From: Burkholderia sp. PAMC 26561
GTDB lineage: Bacteria; Actinomycetota; Thermoleophilia; Solirubrobacterales; Solirubrobacteraceae
Assembly (NCBI GenBank): GCA_964657595.1
Contig: CAZZVR010000001.1
Coordinates: 17,580-81,579 of the forward strand
Length of the DNA: 64,000 bases
Direction of reading: 5' to 3'
In this document: in pieces, positions 50,823 to 60,047 of the stretch
How the letters are laid out: each line of letters starts with the position of its first letter
Numbering within the stretch: position 1 is the first letter of the stretch
Program-made: the position numbers and the translations under genes
The notes under the pieces: generated by a model
What the model was told of the DNA's origin: nothing
What the model saw: the letters and a program-made list of their open reading frames with translations, nothing else
Database searches by the model: none

Positions 50823-52264
50823 GCCAGCCGCTCCAGCTTGACCTCGATCACCTCACGCGCGTCTTCAACGACGGGCGGACCATCCTGGGTGGCGATCCCC
50901 CACGGGTTCTCCGTCTGACCGCGGGAGGCGCGGAGGCCGTCCGCGAGATGCTTGCGGGAGGCGCGGCGAACACGCCGACGCTCCAGGCGCTCACCCGGCG
51001 GCTCATCGACGCCGGCATCGCCCATCCCCGCCCGGTCAGGGCCCCCGTCACCGATGTCACGGTGATCATCCCGGTGCATGACCGGCCCGAGGAGCTGAAT
51101 CGCTGCCTCGCCGCACTCGGCGAAGTGCCGACACTCGTGGTCGATGACGGCTCCGCGGACGTCGAGGCGGTCGCCGCGGTGTGTCGTCGTCACGGTGCTG
51201 GGTTGCTGCGCCGGGACACCGCGGGTGGCCCAGCCACGGCTCGCAACACCGGACTGCTGCACGCCGGCACTGAGCTCGTCGCCTTCCTCGACTCCGATTG
51301 CGTGCCCGCGGCCGGTTGGCTGGCCATCCTGTGCGGCGTCCTCCGCGATCCGACGGTCGGCGCGGCAGCTCCGCGTATTCGCCCGCTGAACCGCGATGGC
51401 GACGACGGCGGCGGGGCCCTCGCTCGGTACGCCGCCGACCGCTCTCCGCTCGACCTCGGCGCCCACCCAGCGACGGTACTGCCCGGTGGGCGGGTCGCCT
51501 ACGTGCCGACCGCTGCTCTGCTGGCGCGTCGGGCCGCGCTTGGCGACGGCTTTGACCCGGCCCTGCGCTACGGCGAGGACGTCGATCTCGTCTGGCGCAT
51601 CCACGACCGCGGCTGGCGCGTGGTCTATGAGCCCGCCGCGACGGTCCGCCATGCCGAACCGGCACGCGCCGGCCAGCTTTTGCGCCGCCGCTTTGCCTAC
51701 GGCACCTCGGCCGGCCCGCTCGCCCGGCGTCACCCTGAGCGGCTCGCGCCCGTGCGTTTGCATCCCCGCCCCGCGGCGATCACCGCCCTGGCGCTTGCGC
51801 GCCGCCCGCGCGCAGCCGCTCTGTTGACCGGCGCCCATGTCGCTCTCACCGCCCGGGCACTGGGCCGGGTCGACGTGCCCGCCGGTGCCGCGGCCAGCCT
51901 GGCGTTGCGCGGTCTGGCCGACAGCGCCGTGGCAATCGGCCGGGCGACCACGATGCTGCTTCCCGGCGTGCTCGCCGTGGGCCTGACTCGACGAGCGACC
52001 GCACCGTCGGCCCTGGCGCTCCTGCTCGCCGAGCCGGCCCGCGGCTGGGTGCGCCCCACCCGCAGCCTCGACCCGGTCCGCTGGACTGGCCTCGCGGTCG
52101 CCGACGACGTCGCCTACGGGGCGGGCGTGTGGCTCGGCGCGTTACGCGCCCGCACCACCGCTCCCCTCCGCCCAGCGGTGGCAAGCCAGCTGAAACCCAG
52201 GGATCAGAGCGAGGCCGAGACGAGCCTCAGACACTGCCTACGGGGCTGGTGGGCTGCGCGGTAG
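50819..52264 (+). CDS. mftF: Mycofactocin glycosyltransferase
   Basis: GT2 motifs VDDGS, FLDSD, SPLDLG, GEDVD. Confidence 0.92.
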   Translation: MSQPLQLDLDHLTRVFNDGRTILGGDPPRVLRLTAGGAEAVREMLAGGAANTPTLQALTRRLIDAGIAHPRPVRAPVTDVTVIIPVHDRPEELNRCLAALGEVPTLVVDDGSADVEAVAAVCRRHGAGLLRRDTAGGPATARNTGLLHAGTELVAFLDSDCVPAAGWLAILCGVLRDPTVGAAAPRIRPLNRDGDDGGGALARYAADRSPLDLGAHPATVLPGGRVAYVPTAALLARRAALGDGFDPALRYGEDVDLVWRIHDRGWRVVYEPAATVRHAEPARAGQLLRRRFAYGTSAGPLARRHPERLAPVRLHPRPAAITALALARRPRAAALLTGAHVALTARALGRVDVPAGAAASLALRGLADSAVAIGRATTMLLPGVLAVGLTRRATAPSALALLLAEPARGWVRPTRSLDPVRWTGLAVADDVAYGAGVWLGALRARTTAPLRPAVASQLKPRDQSEAETSLRHCLRGWWAAR

Positions 52265-54287
52265 CCGCCTGCGCATCAGCCATTGCGATCGACGGTGTAC
52301 TGCCCAGGACTTTCTCGCCTGATATGACGGTGCCGTCCGCGTAGCGGAACGTGTAGTTCTCGTAGTCGGGCCGGCGGGTGAACTCCCAATACTCGAGGTT
52401 GAGAAAAGGCATCACAAAAGTGACGCGGCCCTTGGAGTTGCGGTAGTAGGTGCCAAAGCCGGGATGTGTCCACACCGTGGTGGCGTGGATCTCGTCCACA
52501 AGCTGGTTGTACCGCTCAGTCACATCCTCACGAGCATCCACTGCGGTGACGCCCATCTCGAGCATCCCGGTGATCAGATCCCGCAGGTAACGCATCTGCA
52601 CCTCCATGAAGTACATGAAGCTCCCGCTGCCGGGGAACGAGTGCGGGCCGCCCAGCATGAAGAAGTTCGGGAAGCCAGGGATGGTGACCCCCAGGTACGC
52701 TTTCGGGTCGTCCTCCTCCCACACCTCACGCAGATGCGCACCCTGTACTCCGTAGACGTCGAGCGAGTCGAGGAAGTAGGACGCGTCGAACCCGGTCGCC
52801 CAGATGATCACGTCGACTGGGTATTCCTGGCCCGTCTGGCTGACAGGACCGGCCGCTGTGACCGACGAGACTCCCTCGGTGACGAGTGAGACGTTGTCGC
52901 GCCGGAGCATCTTGAACCAGCCATTGTCCATGAGGATGCGTTTGCCGAAGGGCGGATAGTCGGGCACCGACTTCTCGATGAGGTCGGGACGGCCTTCCAG
53001 CTGTTCCAGGATGTACCGGGTGTAAAAGCGACGGTGCCCGTCGTTGCGGGCGTTGACGGAACGCTCTGGATGGTCCCACTCGGGATCGACGCGAAGGGCT
53101 TCGATGACCTTGTCCCCGAACTGCCAGAACATGCGCAACCAGTACCAGGCGTGGTAGAGGCGCACAGTACGCAGCAGCATGCGCTGCTCTCCAACAATCT
53201 CCTTGCGGAACATCGGGAATGGCGCGATCCACTGCGGGGAGCGTTGGAAGATCGTCAGGTGTTCGACATCGGTCGCGATCTTGGGCGAGATCTGCTGGGA
53301 GCTTGCTCCGACGCCGATGACTGCAACGCGCTTTCCCTTCAGGTCAAGCCCTTCGGGCCAGCGCGACGAGTGGAACTGAGTGCCGCTGAAGCTCTCGATA
53401 CCCGGGATTTTGGGGAGCTTTGGCTTGTTGAGCGATCCCACCGCAGTGATGACAACGTTCGCGGTGTGCTCCTCGACGCTTCCGTCAGCCGATCGCACCG
53501 CCACGGTCCAAAGACTCGTGCTGTCGTCGAAAGTTGCACTGAGCACTTCTGTATCGAAGCGGACGTGCGGCCGAATGCCGAGCTCCTCCACCGCGTCCGC
53601 GAAGTACTGATGGAGCTCGTCGCGCAACTCGAAGTGCTGTTTCCAGTCACGATCAAAAAACGAGAACGAGTAGAGGTGGCTCGGGGTATCGACGCCGGCG
53701 CCCGGGTACGTGTTGTCGTGCCAGACGCCGCCGGCGGCCGACCGCCGTTCGAAGACCGTGTAATCCGCGCCCATCTGCTCCAGGTAGTGTGCGCCGGCGA
53801 TCCCGGCGATGCCCAACCCGATCATGATGAACTTGAATCCCTCGGGCGCCTGAAGCGGCTTTGTTTCGATTACGGCTTCCCCGGTCGCAGAGCGGCGGTG
53901 TATCTCCCCCGCAAGCAACGGGCCGTATCGGCCGTCGATCTCTTCCCCGAGGAAGATGCTCGTGAGCTTGACCGCCGCCTCCGGGGACAGAGTTGCGATG
54001 GCGGGGACGCCGCCGTTTTGAAGGTGCAGCAGAGCCTGGGCGCCGGCGACACGGATTTCGTCTTGGACCTCCTCGGGCAACCCACCCGAGTCATGTGCCG
54101 TCAGGCCCTTTCCTCGGGTCGGCCGGTAGCGTTCCTCGAGCCACCTCTCGTCGCCTGTCACCTGGTAGACGACCATCAACAGCGTGGGGATGTTCGCCAC
54201 GCGCACCGCATCCCACACGTTCGTCTCGTCCAAGACCGGGACGTGGCCGCTGCCGTCAGCTGACCTTTGCGCTCTGTGCTCCGTCAT
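52227..54287 (-). CDS. Baeyer-Villiger monooxygenase with N-terminal extension (HAPMO-like)
   Basis: GGVWHDNTYPG, FSGTQFHSSRWP, IGVGAS, ATGF. Confidence 0.88.
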   Translation of the reverse strand: MTEHRAQRSADGSGHVPVLDETNVWDAVRVANIPTLLMVVYQVTGDERWLEERYRPTRGKGLTAHDSGGLPEEVQDEIRVAGAQALLHLQNGGVPAIATLSPEAAVKLTSIFLGEEIDGRYGPLLAGEIHRRSATGEAVIETKPLQAPEGFKFIMIGLGIAGIAGAHYLEQMGADYTVFERRSAAGGVWHDNTYPGAGVDTPSHLYSFSFFDRDWKQHFELRDELHQYFADAVEELGIRPHVRFDTEVLSATFDDSTSLWTVAVRSADGSVEEHTANVVITAVGSLNKPKLPKIPGIESFSGTQFHSSRWPEGLDLKGKRVAVIGVGASSQQISPKIATDVEHLTIFQRSPQWIAPFPMFRKEIVGEQRMLLRTVRLYHAWYWLRMFWQFGDKVIEALRVDPEWDHPERSVNARNDGHRRFYTRYILEQLEGRPDLIEKSVPDYPPFGKRILMDNGWFKMLRRDNVSLVTEGVSSVTAAGPVSQTGQEYPVDVIIWATGFDASYFLDSLDVYGVQGAHLREVWEEDDPKAYLGVTIPGFPNFFMLGGPHSFPGSGSFMYFMEVQMRYLRDLITGMLEMGVTAVDAREDVTERYNQLVDEIHATTVWTHPGFGTYYRNSKGRVTFVMPFLNLEYWEFTRRPDYENYTFRYADGTVISGEKVLGSTPSIAMADAQAATAQPTSPVGSV

Positions 54288-54683
54288 TTGTCGCTTCACT
54301 ATCCGATCTACGCTCAACGGCGTCCGTCTCTCATGGCCCGCCGTCTTTCACGGCTTCAGGACCCCTCTCGGGGAGAAGTCGTCTACGTTAATGTTGACGG
54401 TTACCCCGACTCCTGTCAACTTGACCGTTGACGTCGAGCCATGAACGTCATCCAGCACCACGATGCAGTGAGTTGAACGACCGAGCCCCCCGCGGATCTC
54501 GCAGACGGCTCAATGTCATATCCGGCTGATCTCAGGTTGCTGGTCTGGGTGTTTCTGCGGCCGCGTCGCGTGCGCGTGCGCGTGCTCGGACCCACGCCCG
54601 TGCTTCGATCGCGCGTTCGCGGTTGCTCGCGCCGAGTGCGACCGGCAGCACCGCCCGGGATATGAACTTTGGACCGGCCTGGT

Positions 54684-55255: not shown

Positions 55256-55567
55256 TCAGAGCGTCCCCTGCTCGGGCGTCCCCGCCGGATGGGGCGTCAG
55301 CCGCTGGACATCCATCGGGCTGACCAGCTTGCCCTCCAGGCGCACCAGCAAATCGTGCAGCGCCGGGCTCTTGGAGTGCGCCTGAATCGCCTCCAGACTG
55401 GCCCACTTCTCGATCATGACGACCCGGTCCTCGCTCTCCTGGAGGGCGTAGAGCTCACATCCCTCATCGTTGGCGTGGACGGGTGGAATTGCCTCCGCGA
55501 AGGCGGCGATCACCTCGTCGCGATGCTCCGGGATGGGAATGGCGGTGGCGACGATGATGACGCTCAT
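55256..55567 (-). CDS. ABM-family putative quinol monooxygenase (paralog of 42223)
   Basis: GCELYALQE...IEKW; GGAGG RBS. Confidence 0.87.
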   Translation of the reverse strand: MSVIIVATAIPIPEHRDEVIAAFAEAIPPVHANDEGCELYALQESEDRVVMIEKWASLEAIQAHSKSPALHDLLVRLEGKLVSPMDVQRLTPHPAGTPEQGTL

Positions 55568-55613: not shown

Positions 55614-56567
55614 TCAACGGTCGAAGAAGCGCGAGAGCCCTGCCGCGACGTCTCGGTAGGTGCGCGCGGTCGCCAGACGTCCGCGGCCGAGGCGAGCCAG
55701 GTCGCGACCGAGCTCGGGATCGTTCTCACCGGTGACGTCAAGCAGGACGTCGAGGCGTCCCAGCGCCGCCGCGGCCTGGCGCGGGTCCGGCCCGGCGTTG
55801 TGCACGCAGTCCGACAGCAGGATGGCTCGGGTGTCCGTGCTGCGGGCACCGGCGAGCTCCCGCGCGGCCACCTCCAGCGGGAACGCGACATTGGTCAGCC
55901 CACGCGCAGGGATGCGCAGCATGTCCTCCAGCAGCTCCCTGGGATCACGGCGCTGGCCGAGGTGCGCCAGCACCGCGGCGTCTGACCAGAAGGCGACGAC
56001 GCCGAGGTCGTCGTCGACCAGCTCACCCGCGAGCGCTCCGACGGTCGCCGCGGCGGTGGCGATCCGCTCCCCCCGCATCGAGCCCGACACGTCGACGAGC
56101 AGCACGACCGCCCGCCGGGTGCGGATCCGTTCACGCACGAAGATGTCCTCATCCGTCGGTCGCGGGTGCTCGACCAGCGCCGCGAGGGTCGCGTCGAGAT
56201 CAACCTCATCCGACCCGCCGCGATAGCGCCGGCTGACCAGCTCACCCCCCGCACCGCGCGATGCGGTCTCCCGCCGCGGACGCGGCAGCGCGAGCCGGGC
56301 GGCGATCTCCTGGGCGCGACGCAGCGTCGCGGCGTCGACTGCCGCGTCCCGGTCGACCTCGGTCAGCGCACCCTGCTCATCGGTCGTGCCCGGCAGGCTG
56401 GCGCCGGGCGACTTGGGAACCGGGCCGCGCCGGTCGCCGTCCCCCGACAGCGCGTCGCCCCCACCGCCGGAGGCCGACGCGTCATGCAGCGTCGGCGCCT
56501 CATCCAGCTGCTTGGGACGCCGGCGCAACGGCCGCATTCCCGACTTCTGAGAACCCCGCCGGGTCAA
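55614..56567 (-). CDS. Linker + VWA domain protein (in frame with the upstream AAA+ ORF)
   Basis: MIDAS DVSGS, GLTN, LSD; own start codon doubtful. Confidence 0.85.
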   Translation of the reverse strand: MTRRGSQKSGMRPLRRRPKQLDEAPTLHDASASGGGGDALSGDGDRRGPVPKSPGASLPGTTDEQGALTEVDRDAAVDAATLRRAQEIAARLALPRPRRETASRGAGGELVSRRYRGGSDEVDLDATLAALVEHPRPTDEDIFVRERIRTRRAVVLLVDVSGSMRGERIATAAATVGALAGELVDDDLGVVAFWSDAAVLAHLGQRRDPRELLEDMLRIPARGLTNVAFPLEVAARELAGARSTDTRAILLSDCVHNAGPDPRQAAAALGRLDVLLDVTGENDPELGRDLARLGRGRLATARTYRDVAAGLSRFFDR

Positions 56568-56594
56568 CGGCGAATCGAGGCCCTCCAGAGCTCT

Positions 56595-57512
56595 TCAACC
56601 AGGGTCGGCCGCCGCCGGTTCCAGGATGAAGTGGTCCTCCCAGATCCGTCGCAGCACTTGCTCCGGAGTGATCTCAGCCGTCTCATCGAGATAGATGCGT
56701 CCGGATAGCGCGAGGACCATCCCGTCGAACACGACGTCTCTGTAACGGTCGTCGTCCGGGTCGCTCACCCCCGCCATCTCCAGCAGCTGCCCGGTCACCA
56801 GCGTCAGATCGATCGCCCCGCGCACACTCGAACCCTGCCGCAGATCATCCTGAGCCCGGGTCGCGCGCGTCAAGGCGACAGCGTCCTGCACGAGCCGGTC
56901 CCATAGACCGGCGCTCAACTCCGCCCGTCCGGTCCGTTGCGTGACGATGTCACGCTCAGCCCCGGCGTCCTGATAGCCGACCGCCAAACGGCACATCCGG
57001 TCATGCACCGAGGTCGACAACCGCGTCGTCCCCACGTTGTCGAACGGATTCATCGAGGCGATCACCCGAAAACTCTCCAGCGCGGTGATCACCCCGACGC
57101 GCGGGATCGCCACCTGACGCTCGGCCATCGCGGTCAACAACGTGTTCAACGTGTCCTCAGGGGCCCGGTTGAACTCCTCCATGTACAGGAAGCCACCCGT
57201 GCGCATCGCCTCGACCAGCGGCCCTTCCGTGAAGTTCTCAGCCGTGTAATCCTCGCGCAGCACCCGGGAGGGATCGTGATGGCCCAACAGCCGGGCCGGG
57301 GTCAGATCGGCGTTGCCCTCGACGAACAGCAGCGGCACCCCCCACTCACTGGTGATCGCCCGCAACAGCGTCGACTTGCTCGTCCCGGGCGGGCCCTCGA
57401 GCAGGATGTCGCACCCGGCCGCGACCGCGGCGAGCACGAGGTCGAGCTCGTGCTCGCGACCGACGACGTGACCCCGGATGCGCTCCCGGGCCGCCAGCAG
57501 CTCGGCATTCAC
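56595..57512 (-). CDS. MoxR-family AAA+ ATPase
   Basis: GPPGTSKS Walker A, YMEEFNR Walker B, ASMNP, DR; GTG overlaps the SDR stop (GTGA). Confidence 0.92.
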   Translation of the reverse strand: MNAELLAARERIRGHVVGREHELDLVLAAVAAGCDILLEGPPGTSKSTLLRAITSEWGVPLLFVEGNADLTPARLLGHHDPSRVLREDYTAENFTEGPLVEAMRTGGFLYMEEFNRAPEDTLNTLLTAMAERQVAIPRVGVITALESFRVIASMNPFDNVGTTRLSTSVHDRMCRLAVGYQDAGAERDIVTQRTGRAELSAGLWDRLVQDAVALTRATRAQDDLRQGSSVRGAIDLTLVTGQLLEMAGVSDPDDDRYRDVVFDGMVLALSGRIYLDETAEITPEQVLRRIWEDHFILEPAAADPG

Positions 57513-58351
57513 TTGACGGTGTACCCCGCGTCGACCTTCAGCTCGAGGCCGGTGATGTAGCGCGCCTCCTCGGAGGCGAGGAACAGCACCGCATTGGAGA
57601 TGTCCACCGGCTCCACCCAGGGAACCGGGAGGCTGTTGATCGCGGTGAAGATCGGCTCCGCATCCGCCTGGGTCGGTGCGTCGTGATCGGGCATGAACAG
57701 TTTGTACAGGGATTCGTTCTGGATCATCGGCGTGTTGACCGACGTCGGGTGCACCGAGTTGACCCGGATCCGATGTGGTGCCAGCTCGTTGGACAGCGTC
57801 CGCATGATGCCCACCACCGCGTGCTTGGATGCCGTGTAGGGCAGCACGTTGGGCGTCCCCTTCAGCCCGGCCGTCGAGCTGGTGAGGATGATCGAGCCGC
57901 CGCTGCCCTGCTCGACGAGCGCGGGGATGACCGCCTTGCATGTGTGCCAGACGCCCTTGGCGTTGATGTCGTTGACCTCGTCCCACTGGGCGTCGGTGAC
58001 GTTCTGGCTCTCCTGGCCGAACACGAAGATGCCGGCGTTGGCCGACACGATGTCGATCCGTCCCAGCTGGGCGAGTCCGTCCTCGAAGGCGCGCTTGAGC
58101 GCATCGAAGTCACGCACGTCGGCCTGGCTGGCCACGATGCGACGGTCGAGCGCCTCGACCTGGCGCACCGTCTCGGCGAGATCCTCCGGCGTGGCGCCGT
58201 CATAGAACGGAGCCACCTCTGGCAGGGTCTGACAGATGTCGACGGCGATGATGTCGGCACCCTCCTGCGCCAGGCGGATCGCATGGGAGCGACCCTGGCC
58301 ACGAGCCGCACCGGTGATGAAGGCGACCTTGCCCTCCACGCGGCCACTCAT
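57509..58351 (-). CDS. Mycofactocin-coupled SDR oxidoreductase
   Basis: TGAARGQGRSHA, DIC, YTASKH. Confidence 0.93.
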   Translation of the reverse strand: MSGRVEGKVAFITGAARGQGRSHAIRLAQEGADIIAVDICQTLPEVAPFYDGATPEDLAETVRQVEALDRRIVASQADVRDFDALKRAFEDGLAQLGRIDIVSANAGIFVFGQESQNVTDAQWDEVNDINAKGVWHTCKAVIPALVEQGSGGSIILTSSTAGLKGTPNVLPYTASKHAVVGIMRTLSNELAPHRIRVNSVHPTSVNTPMIQNESLYKLFMPDHDAPTQADAEPIFTAINSLPVPWVEPVDISNAVLFLASEEARYITGLELKVDAGYTVK

Positions 58352-59178
58352 TTGATCACCGCCCCGGCGTCGACGGGCAGTGCCACACCGGTGATGTATC
58401 GGCCCTCATCGGAGGCGAGGAACAGCAGCGCATTGGAGATGTCTCGCGGCTCCACCCAGGGGATGGGCAGGACGTTGAGCGACTGGGACGCCGGTGCGAA
58501 GTCCTCGCGCGTCGGGTTCTCCGCCGCCGGGTCGAACAACCGGTAGGTCGCCTCGTTCATGATCATCGGCGTGTCGACCTGCGTCGGGCACAGGGCGTTG
58601 ACGCGGATCATGTCGGGCCCGAGCTCGAGCGCGAGCGTCTTCATCAGTCCGATGACACCGTGTTTGGCCGCCACGTAGTGCGCGGTGTTCGCAAAGCCGA
58701 TCAGCCCCGCGGCTGAGCTGGTGAGGATCAGCGAGCCGCCGCGGCCACCGGCCCTGATGTGCGGGATGGCCGCCTTGGCGGCGTGCCACACCCCGGTGAG
58801 GTTCGTGTCGATCATGTCCTGCCACTGGCGCTCCTCCATGTCGAACGGCGCGGGACTCGAGATACCGGCGTTCGCCGAGACGACGTCGAGTCGGCCGAGC
58901 TCGGCCACGCCTGCGTCGACCGCGGCCTTGACGGCACCGTAGTCTCGGACGTCGGCCTGGGTCGCGATGATCCGGCGGTCGAGTGCCTCGACGGCCTCGA
59001 TCGTCTCGGCCAGGTCCTTCGGCGTCGCCATCCCGTAGGGCACCGAGTCGATCTGGGAGCAGATGTCGATGGCGATGATGTCCGCGCCCTCCTCGGCCAG
59101 GCGGATCGCGTGGCTGCGTCCCTGGCCGCGCGCGGCCCCGGTGACGAAGGCGACCTTGTCCTTCAAACGATCAGGCAT
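58348..59178 (-). CDS. Mycofactocin-coupled SDR (carveol dehydrogenase LimC-like)
   Basis: TGAARGQGRSHA, PTQVDTPMI, ENPTREDF, LPIPWVE. Confidence 0.93.
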   Translation of the reverse strand: MPDRLKDKVAFVTGAARGQGRSHAIRLAEEGADIIAIDICSQIDSVPYGMATPKDLAETIEAVEALDRRIIATQADVRDYGAVKAAVDAGVAELGRLDVVSANAGISSPAPFDMEERQWQDMIDTNLTGVWHAAKAAIPHIRAGGRGGSLILTSSAAGLIGFANTAHYVAAKHGVIGLMKTLALELGPDMIRVNALCPTQVDTPMIMNEATYRLFDPAAENPTREDFAPASQSLNVLPIPWVEPRDISNALLFLASDEGRYITGVALPVDAGAVIK

Positions 59179-59192
59179 CTCTCTCCTGGGGT

Positions 59193-60047
59193 TCAGCGGG
59201 TCGGCGACTGGTTGACCCCGGTGAGGATCAGGTGGCCCGCGTCGACGGGGATCGTCACGCCGGTGACCTTGGCGGCGAGGTCGGAGTTGAGGTACAGCGC
59301 CGTGTCGGCGATGACCTGGGGGTCCATGAACGTCGTGCCCTTCAGCGCGGCGAACCCGTAACCGCCCTCCAGCATGTCCGCCTCGGTCCCGCCTTCATGG
59401 CCGGCGAACATGTCCCAGGCGCCCTGGTGGTCGGTCATTGGGGTCTTGATCGCGCCGGGGTTGATCGAGTTGCAGCGGATCCCGTGGGGCGCCAGCTCGA
59501 GGGCGATGTTCTTCATCAGGCCGATGACCGCGTGCTTGGCCGCCACGTAGTGGGCGTAGTTGAGGCCGGCCTCGAGCCCGTTGGTGGAGGAGGTGATGAC
59601 GATCGAGCCGGTCTGGCGCTCGATCATGTGCGGGGCGACCGCCTTGGCCGCCTTCCACACCCCGGTGAGGTTGACGCCGATCATGTCGTCCCATTGCTCG
59701 TCGGTCAGCTCCCAGAATGGCGCCATGGTCCAGATCCCCGCGTTGGCGATGAGGATGTCGATCTGCCCGAACTCGGCGAGCCCGCGACTCACCGCCTCAT
59801 CCAGCTGGGCCTGGTCTCGCACGTCGACGGTCAGGGACACCGCACGCCGGTCGAGCGCCTCGACCTGGCGGACGGTCTCGGCGAGGTCGTCCGGGGCGGC
59901 CATCTTGTACGGGACGGTGGCGATCTGGTCGTTGATGTCGACCACGATCACATCTGCGCCCTCACGGGCACATGTCACTGCGTGAGCGCGGCCTTGGCCG
60001 CGTGCAGCGCCGGTGATCAGGGCGACCTTCCCGTCGAGCATTCCCAT
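59193..60047 (-). CDS. Mycofactocin-coupled SDR oxidoreductase
   Basis: TGAARGQGRAHA, VPY insertion, YVAAKH. Confidence 0.92.
   Translation of the reverse strand: MGMLDGKVALITGAARGQGRAHAVTCAREGADVIVVDINDQIATVPYKMAAPDDLAETVRQVEALDRRAVSLTVDVRDQAQLDEAVSRGLAEFGQIDILIANAGIWTMAPFWELTDEQWDDMIGVNLTGVWKAAKAVAPHMIERQTGSIVITSSTNGLEAGLNYAHYVAAKHAVIGLMKNIALELAPHGIRCNSINPGAIKTPMTDHQGAWDMFAGHEGGTEADMLEGGYGFAALKGTTFMDPQVIADTALYLNSDLAAKVTGVTIPVDAGHLILTGVNQSPTR

Follow-up and report, generated by a model that had tools for sequence, protein, structure and literature searches.

A conserved in-frame UGA between AAA+ and VWA modules of Actinomycetota as a candidate site of programmed stop-codon readthrough

Two domains in one frame

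We analysed a 64,000-nucleotide stretch (the window) of contig CAZZVR010000001.1 from assembly GCA_964657595.1, a genome that GTDB places in the family Solirubrobacteraceae of the Actinomycetota and that is called G000 below. On the minus strand of the window, the reading frame of an AAA+ ATPase ends in a UGA and continues past it, in the same frame, into a VWA domain that carries a MIDAS (an adhesion site dependent on metal ions). An earlier examination of these letters (the original prediction) had proposed that the UGA is read through, so that one gene would give two subunits. The parts of the locus are as follows.

57512-56598, minus strand: AAA+ module of 305 codons, MoxR-class AAA_5 of the NorQ/CbbQ type; the proposed short product
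56589..56603, minus strand: conserved recoding context CCT GGT TGA AGA GCT (consensus CCN GGU UGA AGR G)
56597-56595, minus strand: the in-frame UGA proposed to be read through, at residue 306 of the long product
56505..56594, minus strand: post-stop linker with R-A-L-E-G-L-D-S-P and the motif P328-L-R-R-R-P-K-Q-L336 (56531-56505)
56565..56567, minus strand: TTG, candidate VWA start, not conserved, with a GGAGG 14 nucleotides upstream
56535..56537, minus strand: ATG, candidate VWA start found in the closest relatives only, with no Shine-Dalgarno (SD) match
55617..56243, minus strand: VWA domain, residues ~424-632, with an intact MIDAS (DVSGSM at 56093-56076, GLTN, LLSDC)
55614..55616, minus strand: terminal TGA of the long frame; the stop type varies among orthologs

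The AAA+ frame begins at GTG 57512, which overlaps the stop of the upstream SDR gene as GTGA, and ends in ...GAC CCT GGT TGA, with the stop at 56597-56595 of the minus strand. Past this UGA the frame reads AGA GCT CTG GAG GGC CTC GAT TCG CCG TTG ... and stays open until the TGA at 55616-55614, which gives predicted products of 305 amino acids (short) and 632 amino acids (long, AAA+-linker-VWA). The original prediction was therefore correct in placing both modules in one frame split by a single UGA, and in the product sizes that it gave. A frameshift at this locus was considered and rejected: the +1 and -1 frames both close a few codons past the stop, and the VWA domain lies in frame. The features of a programmed -1 frameshift, namely a VWA domain in the -1 frame and a heptamer of the form X_XXY_YYZ before the 0-frame stop, were absent from the window locus.

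Profile searches with Pfam assigned the first module to AAA_5 (PF07728; 83.7 bits against a cut-off of 22) and the second to VWA_2 (PF13519; 47.7 bits against a cut-off of 27), with VWA_CoxE at 38.8 bits. The AAA+ module carries a Walker A motif (GPPGTSKS) and a Walker B motif (LYMEEF), and G40, P41, P42, G43, K46, E112 and E113 were invariant in 51 homologs. In the VWA domain the columns D474, S476, G477, T540 and D568 were invariant, and the motifs DVSGSM, GLTN and LLSDC were invariant or nearly so. Profiles and motif residues together place the two modules in the MoxR class of AAA+ proteins and among the VWA/MIDAS domains.

An AlphaFold2 model of the readthrough protein, made with 51 homologs, had a mean predicted local distance difference test (pLDDT) score of 83.7. 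In this model, residues 1-300 form the AAA+ module (pLDDT mostly >90; last helix 283-300) and residues 301-333 are disordered, with the stop site at residue 306 inside the disordered segment, just past the last AAA+ helix. The region of PLRRRPKQL reached ~75-84, and most of the VWA domain (424-632) ~86-96. A Foldseek search with the AAA+ module matched NorQ (9qh4-9qh9) at template modelling (TM) scores of 0.82-0.84 over the whole NorQ chain, the match to 9qh8_A having a TM(target) of 0.84 and E = 2e-17; CbbQ was matched as well (6l1q, TM 0.79; 5c3c). Because the module matches whole NorQ/CbbQ chains, the model predicts that the short product would be a complete NorQ/CbbQ-like ATPase.

The comparison with chelatase genes of the chlD type that came with the original prediction did not hold as a label for this family. 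Assignment to the ChlD/BchD or CobT chelatase medium subunits was rejected on profile scores far below their cut-offs (TIGR02031, 24.5 bits against 499.6; TIGR02442, 26-29 against 779), and the family is one of NorQ/CbbQ-like MoxR AAA_5 proteins linked to mycofactocin-coupled SDR genes.

The same stop at every orthologous junction

Orthologous loci were collected from several sources. Searching the readthrough protein against 346 genomes of the window's genus gave 13 loci at 50-90% identity, and all 13 had one in-frame TGA in the arrangement ...P-G TGA AG(A/G/C). A scan of one genome per species yielded 34 further distinct loci with the same UGA arrangement (L036 repeats the record of L009 and is not counted), and L064 was the sole fused locus in that set. 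An even sample of the phylum (400 genomes) contributed one extra UGA locus (L088), and two Rhodococcus megaplasmids added L116 (R. qingshengii CS98, plasmid RQCS_2) and L117 (R. ruber MSA14, pmega_1), for a total of 50 loci. Many of the per-locus statistics below refer to 47 loci. L029, from the unpublished genome G086, underlies none of the statements made here. Carriers were found in Leucobacter, Agromyces, Microbacterium, Compostimonas, Lacisediminihabitans, Kribbella, Granulicoccus, Georgenia, Gryllotalpicola, Modestobacter, Geodermatophilus, Herbiconiux and Rhodococcus, and in Pseudonocardiaceae, Streptosporangiaceae, Acidimicrobiaceae and Solirubrobacteraceae.

Exactly one in-frame stop was present at the junction in 50/50 loci, and it was always TGA. 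It was preceded by ..P-G in 47/50 loci and always followed by AG, with AGA or AGG as the next codon in 49/50. The frame was kept across the stop in every orthologous locus, as the original prediction had anticipated for a functional junction together with a constant UGA after P-G. In full-length loci the downstream frame was intact over 320-340 codons, and the MIDAS residues DxSGSM, GLTN and LLSDC were conserved across loci. The stop type at the junction underwent zero changes on the tree, against at least 6 changes of the terminal VWA stop on the same tree; the terminal stop was TGA in 34, TAG in 9 and TAA in 2 orthologs (TGA 33, TAG 7 and TAA 2 in the 42 tree rows). In a single locus the in-frame arrangement would arise by chance in one case out of three; a UGA that recurs at one linker position in 50/50 orthologous loci is not chance.

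Two loci carried lesions elsewhere in the gene. In L013 (G254) the VWA C-terminus was frameshifted and extended, and in L017 (G186) the AAA part was split over two frames; the PG TGA AGA junction was kept in both. Probably, these are either errors of metagenome-assembled genomes or genuine lesions confined to single genomes.

Uninterrupted fusions surround the UGA forms

A protein search with residues 200-632 returned dozens of AAA_5-linker-VWA proteins without an interruption, 613-670 residues long and 35-62% identical over the searched part, so that the fused homologs foreseen by the original prediction proved to be numerous. Their segment at the junction has the form ...EDHF.L.PA.A.PG-x-NAVxADSP..RR....PFRRKPKxLDEPP, and the residue aligned to the stop was variable (E, D, G, P, T, S), with Cys in P0005 only. 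On a tree of 118 sequences the deepest branches were all fused, and the UGA forms filled a clade of 103 rows in which sense-codon forms were nested. At least 11-12 changes between UGA and sense codon were counted, an approximate number given that the tree was a quick LG+G4 reconstruction with some long branches. One such change can be read directly from the letters: L086 has CCG ACC TCA AGA GAG GTC where its sister L057 has CCG ACG TGA AGA GAG GTC, so that stop and Ser differ by one base. As far as this tree can be followed, the ancestral form is a fusion, with which the UGA form is interchangeable.

A nucleotide context that ordinary stops avoid

The five bases TGAAG were invariant in 47/47 loci. 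The codon after the stop was AGA in 34 loci, AGG in 12 and AGC in 1, although in the rest of these genes AGA and AGG together account for just 4.7% of Arg codons. At least 10 exchanges of AGA and AGG were counted at this codon on the tree, and none to the preferred CGN. At the -1 codon, GGT was found in 27/47 loci, compared with 11.6% elsewhere. As a baseline for ordinary stops we used a proxy set of 1914 genes of G000, in which TGA makes up 70% of stops. At these TGA stops, A was the rarest base at +4 (10.7%), AG occupied +4/+5 in 2.9% of cases, and U was the rarest base at -1 (4.7%). Since U at -1, A at +4 and AG at +4/+5 are all rare at ordinary stops, the context of the junction is one that normal gene ends avoid.

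In older fused lineages with a sense codon at the stop site, the AGR was often lost too (for example T-H-A-V and D-H-A-V). A passage in PMC5289835, citing Engelberg-Kulka 1981, describes UGA followed by A as leaky in E. coli, and for wild-type B. subtilis a UGA readthrough of 6% is on report (PMC7918605). Of the two local signals expected of a readthrough gene, a conserved context was found here (TGAAG invariant, AGR next, U enriched at -1), and a 3' structure was not.

Protein-level selection from the first codon, and no conserved VWA start

In most loci, codons +1 to +9 after the stop encode R-(A/E/D/T)-V-x-A-D-(S/T)-P; their third positions were free to vary, and their first and second positions were conserved. 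Without selection, about three nonsynonymous changes are expected per synonymous change. Among 16 close pairs we counted 32 synonymous and 28 nonsynonymous differences in codons +1 to +9, and 67 synonymous and 33 nonsynonymous differences in the PLRRxPKxL motif. Moreover, the R-A-L-E-G-L-D-S-P linker of the window is homologous to the ..NAVxADSP.. segment of the fused proteins. By the measure of this linker homology, the conservation of amino acids and the excess of synonymous changes, the region past the stop is translated.

The first three codons past the stop (+1 to +3) read AGR, GCN/GAN and, in most loci, GTC, with no initiation codon among them. No ATG, GTG or TTG occurs between the stop and the PLRRxPKxL motif in 22/47 loci, and in L002 none occurs for 75 codons past the stop. 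In the other 25/47 loci, candidate starts were scattered over codons 3, 9, 10, 14, 19-24 and 53; an SD-like match accompanied them in 8/25 of these loci and was lacking in 17/25. Across the 47 loci, no conserved independent VWA start with an SD sequence was found. As for the candidates in the window, TTG 56567 is CTC in L008 (90% identity) and the GGAGG at 14 nucleotides falls outside the scanned SD window, and ATG 56537 is kept in L001, L008 and L009 (codon 20) and is absent from L015 and most other loci. The remark in the original prediction that the VWA frame has no convincing start of its own was thus confirmed, as the TTG lies 14 nucleotides from the GGAGG, the ATG has no SD sequence and neither is conserved.

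RefSeq annotation by the Prokaryotic Genome Annotation Pipeline (PGAP) calls two genes at such loci, a 'MoxR family ATPase' and a 'vWA domain-containing protein' (L116, L117). The VWA start was set by PGAP at an ATG at codon 16 in R. qingshengii (L116) and at codon 49 in R. ruber (L117), and the latter cuts off the conserved PLRRRPKEL motif. The locus has the pattern looked for in readthrough genes, in that selection on the downstream protein begins at the first codon and the downstream part has no start of its own.

RNA structure, selenocysteine machinery and tRNAs

RNAalifold on the 47 loci from -15 to +105 nucleotides returned 0 consensus pairs, and gap-free windows near the stop returned 0 pairs or a trivial 3-base-pair hairpin upstream. 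Eight single-sequence folds were no better than those of shuffled sequence (z between -0.6 and +1.75). The hairpin that the original prediction had drawn just after the stop is present in the minimum-energy fold, but its z was -0.26 and it is lost in L008 at 90% identity, so that this part of the prediction did not survive. A GUCG...CGAC mini-hairpin at codons +3 to +6, seen by eye, was likewise set aside, as RNAalifold did not support it.

The gene selB scored above its cut-off in 1/5 carrier genomes tested, G022, which also has tRNA-Sec; it was not found in G000 or in the UGA carriers G368 (98% complete) and G369 (94% complete). ARAGORN found no tRNA-Sec and no UCA anticodon among the 52 tRNAs of G000 (82% complete). 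The set of features that marks a bacterial selenoprotein, namely SelB, tRNA-Sec and a selenocysteine insertion sequence (SECIS) hairpin, was not present. A suppressor tRNA or an unusual tRNA-Trp was also considered and rejected: the tRNA-Trp(CCA) of G000 has a normal 5-base-pair anticodon stem, and none of the 52 tRNAs found has a UCA anticodon.

Paralogs and related systems

A second group of AAA_5 + VWA loci (class-3 paralogs), with 45-50% identity in the AAA part, has the VWA domain in the -1 frame, and for most of these loci no canonical start lies close to it. In the phylum sample, a perfect G_GGA_AAA in the X_XXY_YYZ register was found 10-49 nucleotides before the 0-frame stop in 15/15 class-3 loci with two hits (L096-L099, L101-L107, L109, L112-L114). 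Their 0-frame stop varies between TGA, TAG and TAA, and the -1 frame is open from just upstream of the heptamer onwards. The heptamer lies at ..PGKA.., at the AAA/linker boundary that reads ..PG*RA.. in the window locus. Class-3 copies also occur in the window's genus (L004-L007, L028, L030, L031, L033), where the heptamers are imperfect (GGGGAGA, GGGAAGA, GGAAAGA) and the stop carries an invariant CTGA. The class-3 loci are likely to use a programmed -1 frameshift of the kind shown for fs-chlD. They resemble the window locus in their domain pair, their boundary and the short and long product expected of them, but differ in that the VWA domain is in the -1 frame, a slippery site is present and the stop is variable, which fits frameshifting and not readthrough. 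The same AAA/VWA junction would accordingly appear in three forms of expression: a fusion, a -1 frameshift and a UGA form.

The fs-chlD genes yield two subunits by frameshifting, with a measured efficiency of up to 63% (PMC3711429). Like the window locus under the readthrough reading, each is an AAA+-linker-VWA gene that makes short and long subunits by recoding at the domain boundary (PMC3711429, PMC9227772), is annotated as two adjacent genes and has uninterrupted fusions in other taxa. The mechanism is different, however: fs-chlD shifts frame by -1 (or +1) at slippery sites that are AT-rich and have downstream structure, whereas the window locus has an in-frame UGA and no structure. The AAA+ part is of the ChlI/BchI type in fs-chlD and of the AAA_5 (NorQ/CbbQ-like) type here, and fs-chlD lies among chelatase genes whereas the window locus has SDR and ABM neighbours (cobN and chlH were not searched for). 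The two fs-chlD papers (PMC3711429, PMC9227772) make no mention of readthrough.

In structural terms the nearest systems are NorQ-NorD and CbbQ-CbbO, whose AAA+ modules match (TM 0.79-0.84) and whose partners carry a VWA/MIDAS domain. There the two partners are encoded by different genes, each with a start of its own, and NorD and CbbO are far larger, whereas at the window locus the VWA domain is joined in one frame. The client at the window locus is probably an SDR, unlike in NorQ-NorD and CbbQ-CbbO. In NorQ/NorD, one VWA-domain finger enters the central pore of the hexamer (PMC13036017), and the CobT VWA domain has been placed at the CobS pore (bioRxiv 10.64898/2026.10.09.757910).

A leaky stop of the type proposed here has precedents. 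The A1 protein of phage Qbeta is the C-terminally extended product of a leaky UGA, made by near-cognate tRNA decoding at a low, set rate. Conserved in-frame stops in bacteria with purifying selection downstream have been surveyed by Belinky et al. 2021 (PMC7918605), who do not mention AAA, ATPase or VWA genes. The window locus resembles Qbeta A1 and the conserved in-frame stops in its putatively leaky UGA and its selected downstream region, but differs from them in that the family spans several actinobacterial orders and classes, the gene is cellular, UGA-AG is invariant and a whole domain lies downstream. No published description of an AAA+/VWA case of UGA readthrough was found in the literature on readthrough, MoxR, VWA and recoding in Actinobacteria.

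Gene neighbourhood

The genes on either side of the long frame are the following.

57509..60047, minus strand: immediately upstream, mycofactocin-coupled SDR genes, three in tandem (TIGR03971; 402, 408 and 364 bits against a cut-off of 300)
55256..55567, minus strand: small open reading frame (ORF) of 103 amino acids, similar to the antibiotic biosynthesis monooxygenase (ABM) type, with its own GGAGG ribosome-binding site

The last SDR gene is translationally coupled to the AAA+ gene through the GTGA overlap. An SDR gene lies directly upstream in 31/47 orthologous loci, and RefSeq names the same mycofactocin-coupled SDR neighbour on the Rhodococcus plasmids. This operon context suggests that the AAA+/VWA system is a maturation or remodelling chaperone for mycofactocin-coupled SDR dehydrogenases.

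On the downstream side, the 103-amino-acid ABM-like ORF had no NCBIfam hit, and a homologous ORF is directly downstream in 9/47 loci. In the metagenomic proteins P0041, P0070, P0077, P0104, P0106 and P0114, VWA and ABM (PF03992) occur in one polypeptide, and the VWA frame of L035 is ~610 codons long. The sequences hint at a functional link between VWA and ABM. Downstream of the ABM gene lies a 696-amino-acid ORF (52227-54317, minus strand) with a weak partial match to a Baeyer-Villiger-type flavin monooxygenase (PtlE-like; 137.7 bits against a cut-off of 1100).

Readthrough and its alternatives

The conserved stop, context and frame, the existing fusions and the lack of a conserved VWA start all support the readthrough interpretation of the original prediction. 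Neither of the outcomes named beforehand as speaking against it was seen, that is, a variable stop or frame combined with a conserved VWA start, or a sense codon at this site in all homologs. We therefore regard it as probable that the family uses a context-driven, programmed UGA readthrough by which one gene would give a short motor and a long motor-plus-adaptor.

Under this proposal, most ribosomes would terminate at UGA 56597-56595 and release the 305-amino-acid NorQ/CbbQ-like AAA+ ATPase. A fraction would decode the UGA by a near-cognate tRNA, most plausibly tRNA-Trp(CCA), with insertion of Cys or Arg also possible, and would continue in frame via the disordered linker into the VWA/MIDAS domain to make the 632-amino-acid AAA+-linker-VWA protein. 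The signal would be purely local, U-UGA-AG(A/G), probably helped by the nascent ...Pro-Gly end and without any 3' RNA structure. The likely purpose would be a minority of VWA-bearing subunits among plain AAA+ subunits; by analogy, the single VWA finger in the pore of each NorQ hexamer would be a reason to make less VWA than AAA+. We infer the readthrough level, the inserted residue, the rationale of stoichiometry and the client from these considerations. A further-reaching version, in which U-UGA-AGR after Pro-Gly is a dedicated, structure-independent signal that works at ~5-20%, supplies ~1 adaptor per hexamer and sets a ratio that, because the signal depends on release factor 2 (RF2), could respond to growth state, is tentative, and we would sooner doubt than assert it.

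Several points weigh against readthrough as proposed here. We infer it from comparative genomics, and the loci share descent, so the counts given above overstate their independence. Pro-Gly before the stop is present in the fused homologs as well and is consequently not a signal specific to the UGA form. As no stimulatory RNA structure was found, the efficiency could be that of a basal UGA leak, a percent or less, and with a basal leak only, the rationale of stoichiometry becomes weaker. We know of no bacterial precedent for a UGA-AGR readthrough signal. Finally, the weakest UGA context in E. coli is said to be UGA-C, not UGA-A, in the passage of PMC5289835 referred to above.

The main rival, to which we give a small but real chance, is a true gene fission: translation would end at the UGA every time, and a separate VWA protein would come from termination-reinitiation or internal initiation, at a start just past the stop that is non-canonical or poorly conserved. 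It agrees with the two-gene annotation in RefSeq, with the presence of an ATG, GTG or TTG before the conserved motif in 25/47 loci and with the ATG at codon 20 shared by L001, L008 and L009; in addition, the purine-rich AGAG/AGGAG past the stop resembles a weak SD sequence, and the invariant CTGA overlap of the own-genus class-3 paralogs would offer a possible CUG restart. Yet the 22/47 loci without a canonical start before the motif are hard to accommodate; the starts that do exist are unconserved and in 17/25 loci have no SD sequence, and codons +1 to +9 are conserved as protein, the AGR, GCN/GAN and mostly GTC at their beginning not being initiation codons. Fission also leaves unexplained why TAG and TAA are absent from the junction, why AGR is constant and why sense-codon fusions are nested among the UGA forms.

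We consider it very improbable that, instead of near-cognate decoding, a short ribosomal bypassing (hopping) or another non-standard event takes place at GGU-UGA-AGR. A U conserved at -1, a Gly codon ahead of the stop and a rare AGR behind it do recall take-off contexts of bypassing and frameshifting, but downstream no matching landing codon for tRNA-Gly is conserved, no structure was found nearby, and the frame is unchanged, so that simple readthrough suffices.

Decoding of the UGA as selenocysteine, directed by a downstream SECIS hairpin, is effectively refuted. An in-frame UGA with a possible hairpin shortly after it in the window, and a G022 genome with both selB and tRNA-Sec, are what such a case would start from; against this, selB was seen in 1/5 carrier genomes, G000 showed no tRNA-Sec or UCA anticodon in the ARAGORN search, no hairpin is conserved, and the site falls in a disordered linker where the fused homologs have a variable residue that is Cys only in P0005.

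A lone in-frame stop in an otherwise fused family is what a nonsense mutation usually looks like, but conservation refutes a pseudogene, a private mutation and a sequencing error alike: the same stop recurs in 50 assemblies that are independent of each other, among them isolate genomes and one complete chromosome, which excludes a sequencing error, and downstream of it the frame of 320-340 codons and the MIDAS residues are intact and synonymous changes are in excess.

Implications

To our knowledge, programmed stop-codon readthrough is established for very few cellular genes of bacteria, and we know of no case that is conserved phylum-wide, has a short, defined context and is followed by an entire functional domain. 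If readthrough is indeed what happens at this junction, it would add UGA-AGR to the readthrough signals of bacteria, and it would correct how these loci are annotated in the actinobacterial carrier genomes, where they now stand as two genes with arbitrary VWA starts. Culturable carriers exist in Rhodococcus qingshengii CS98, R. ruber MSA14 and type strains of Microbacterium, Modestobacter and Geodermatophilus. Readthrough would also point to a dedicated chaperone for the mycofactocin-coupled SDR dehydrogenases, and it would mean that AAA+/VWA machines tune the ratio of motor to adaptor by recoding in more than one way. Should the more tentative version with a dedicated signal hold as well, the superfamily would be a natural experiment in the control of stoichiometry by recoding, with the fusion, the G_GGA_AAA frameshift and the UGA readthrough as its forms.

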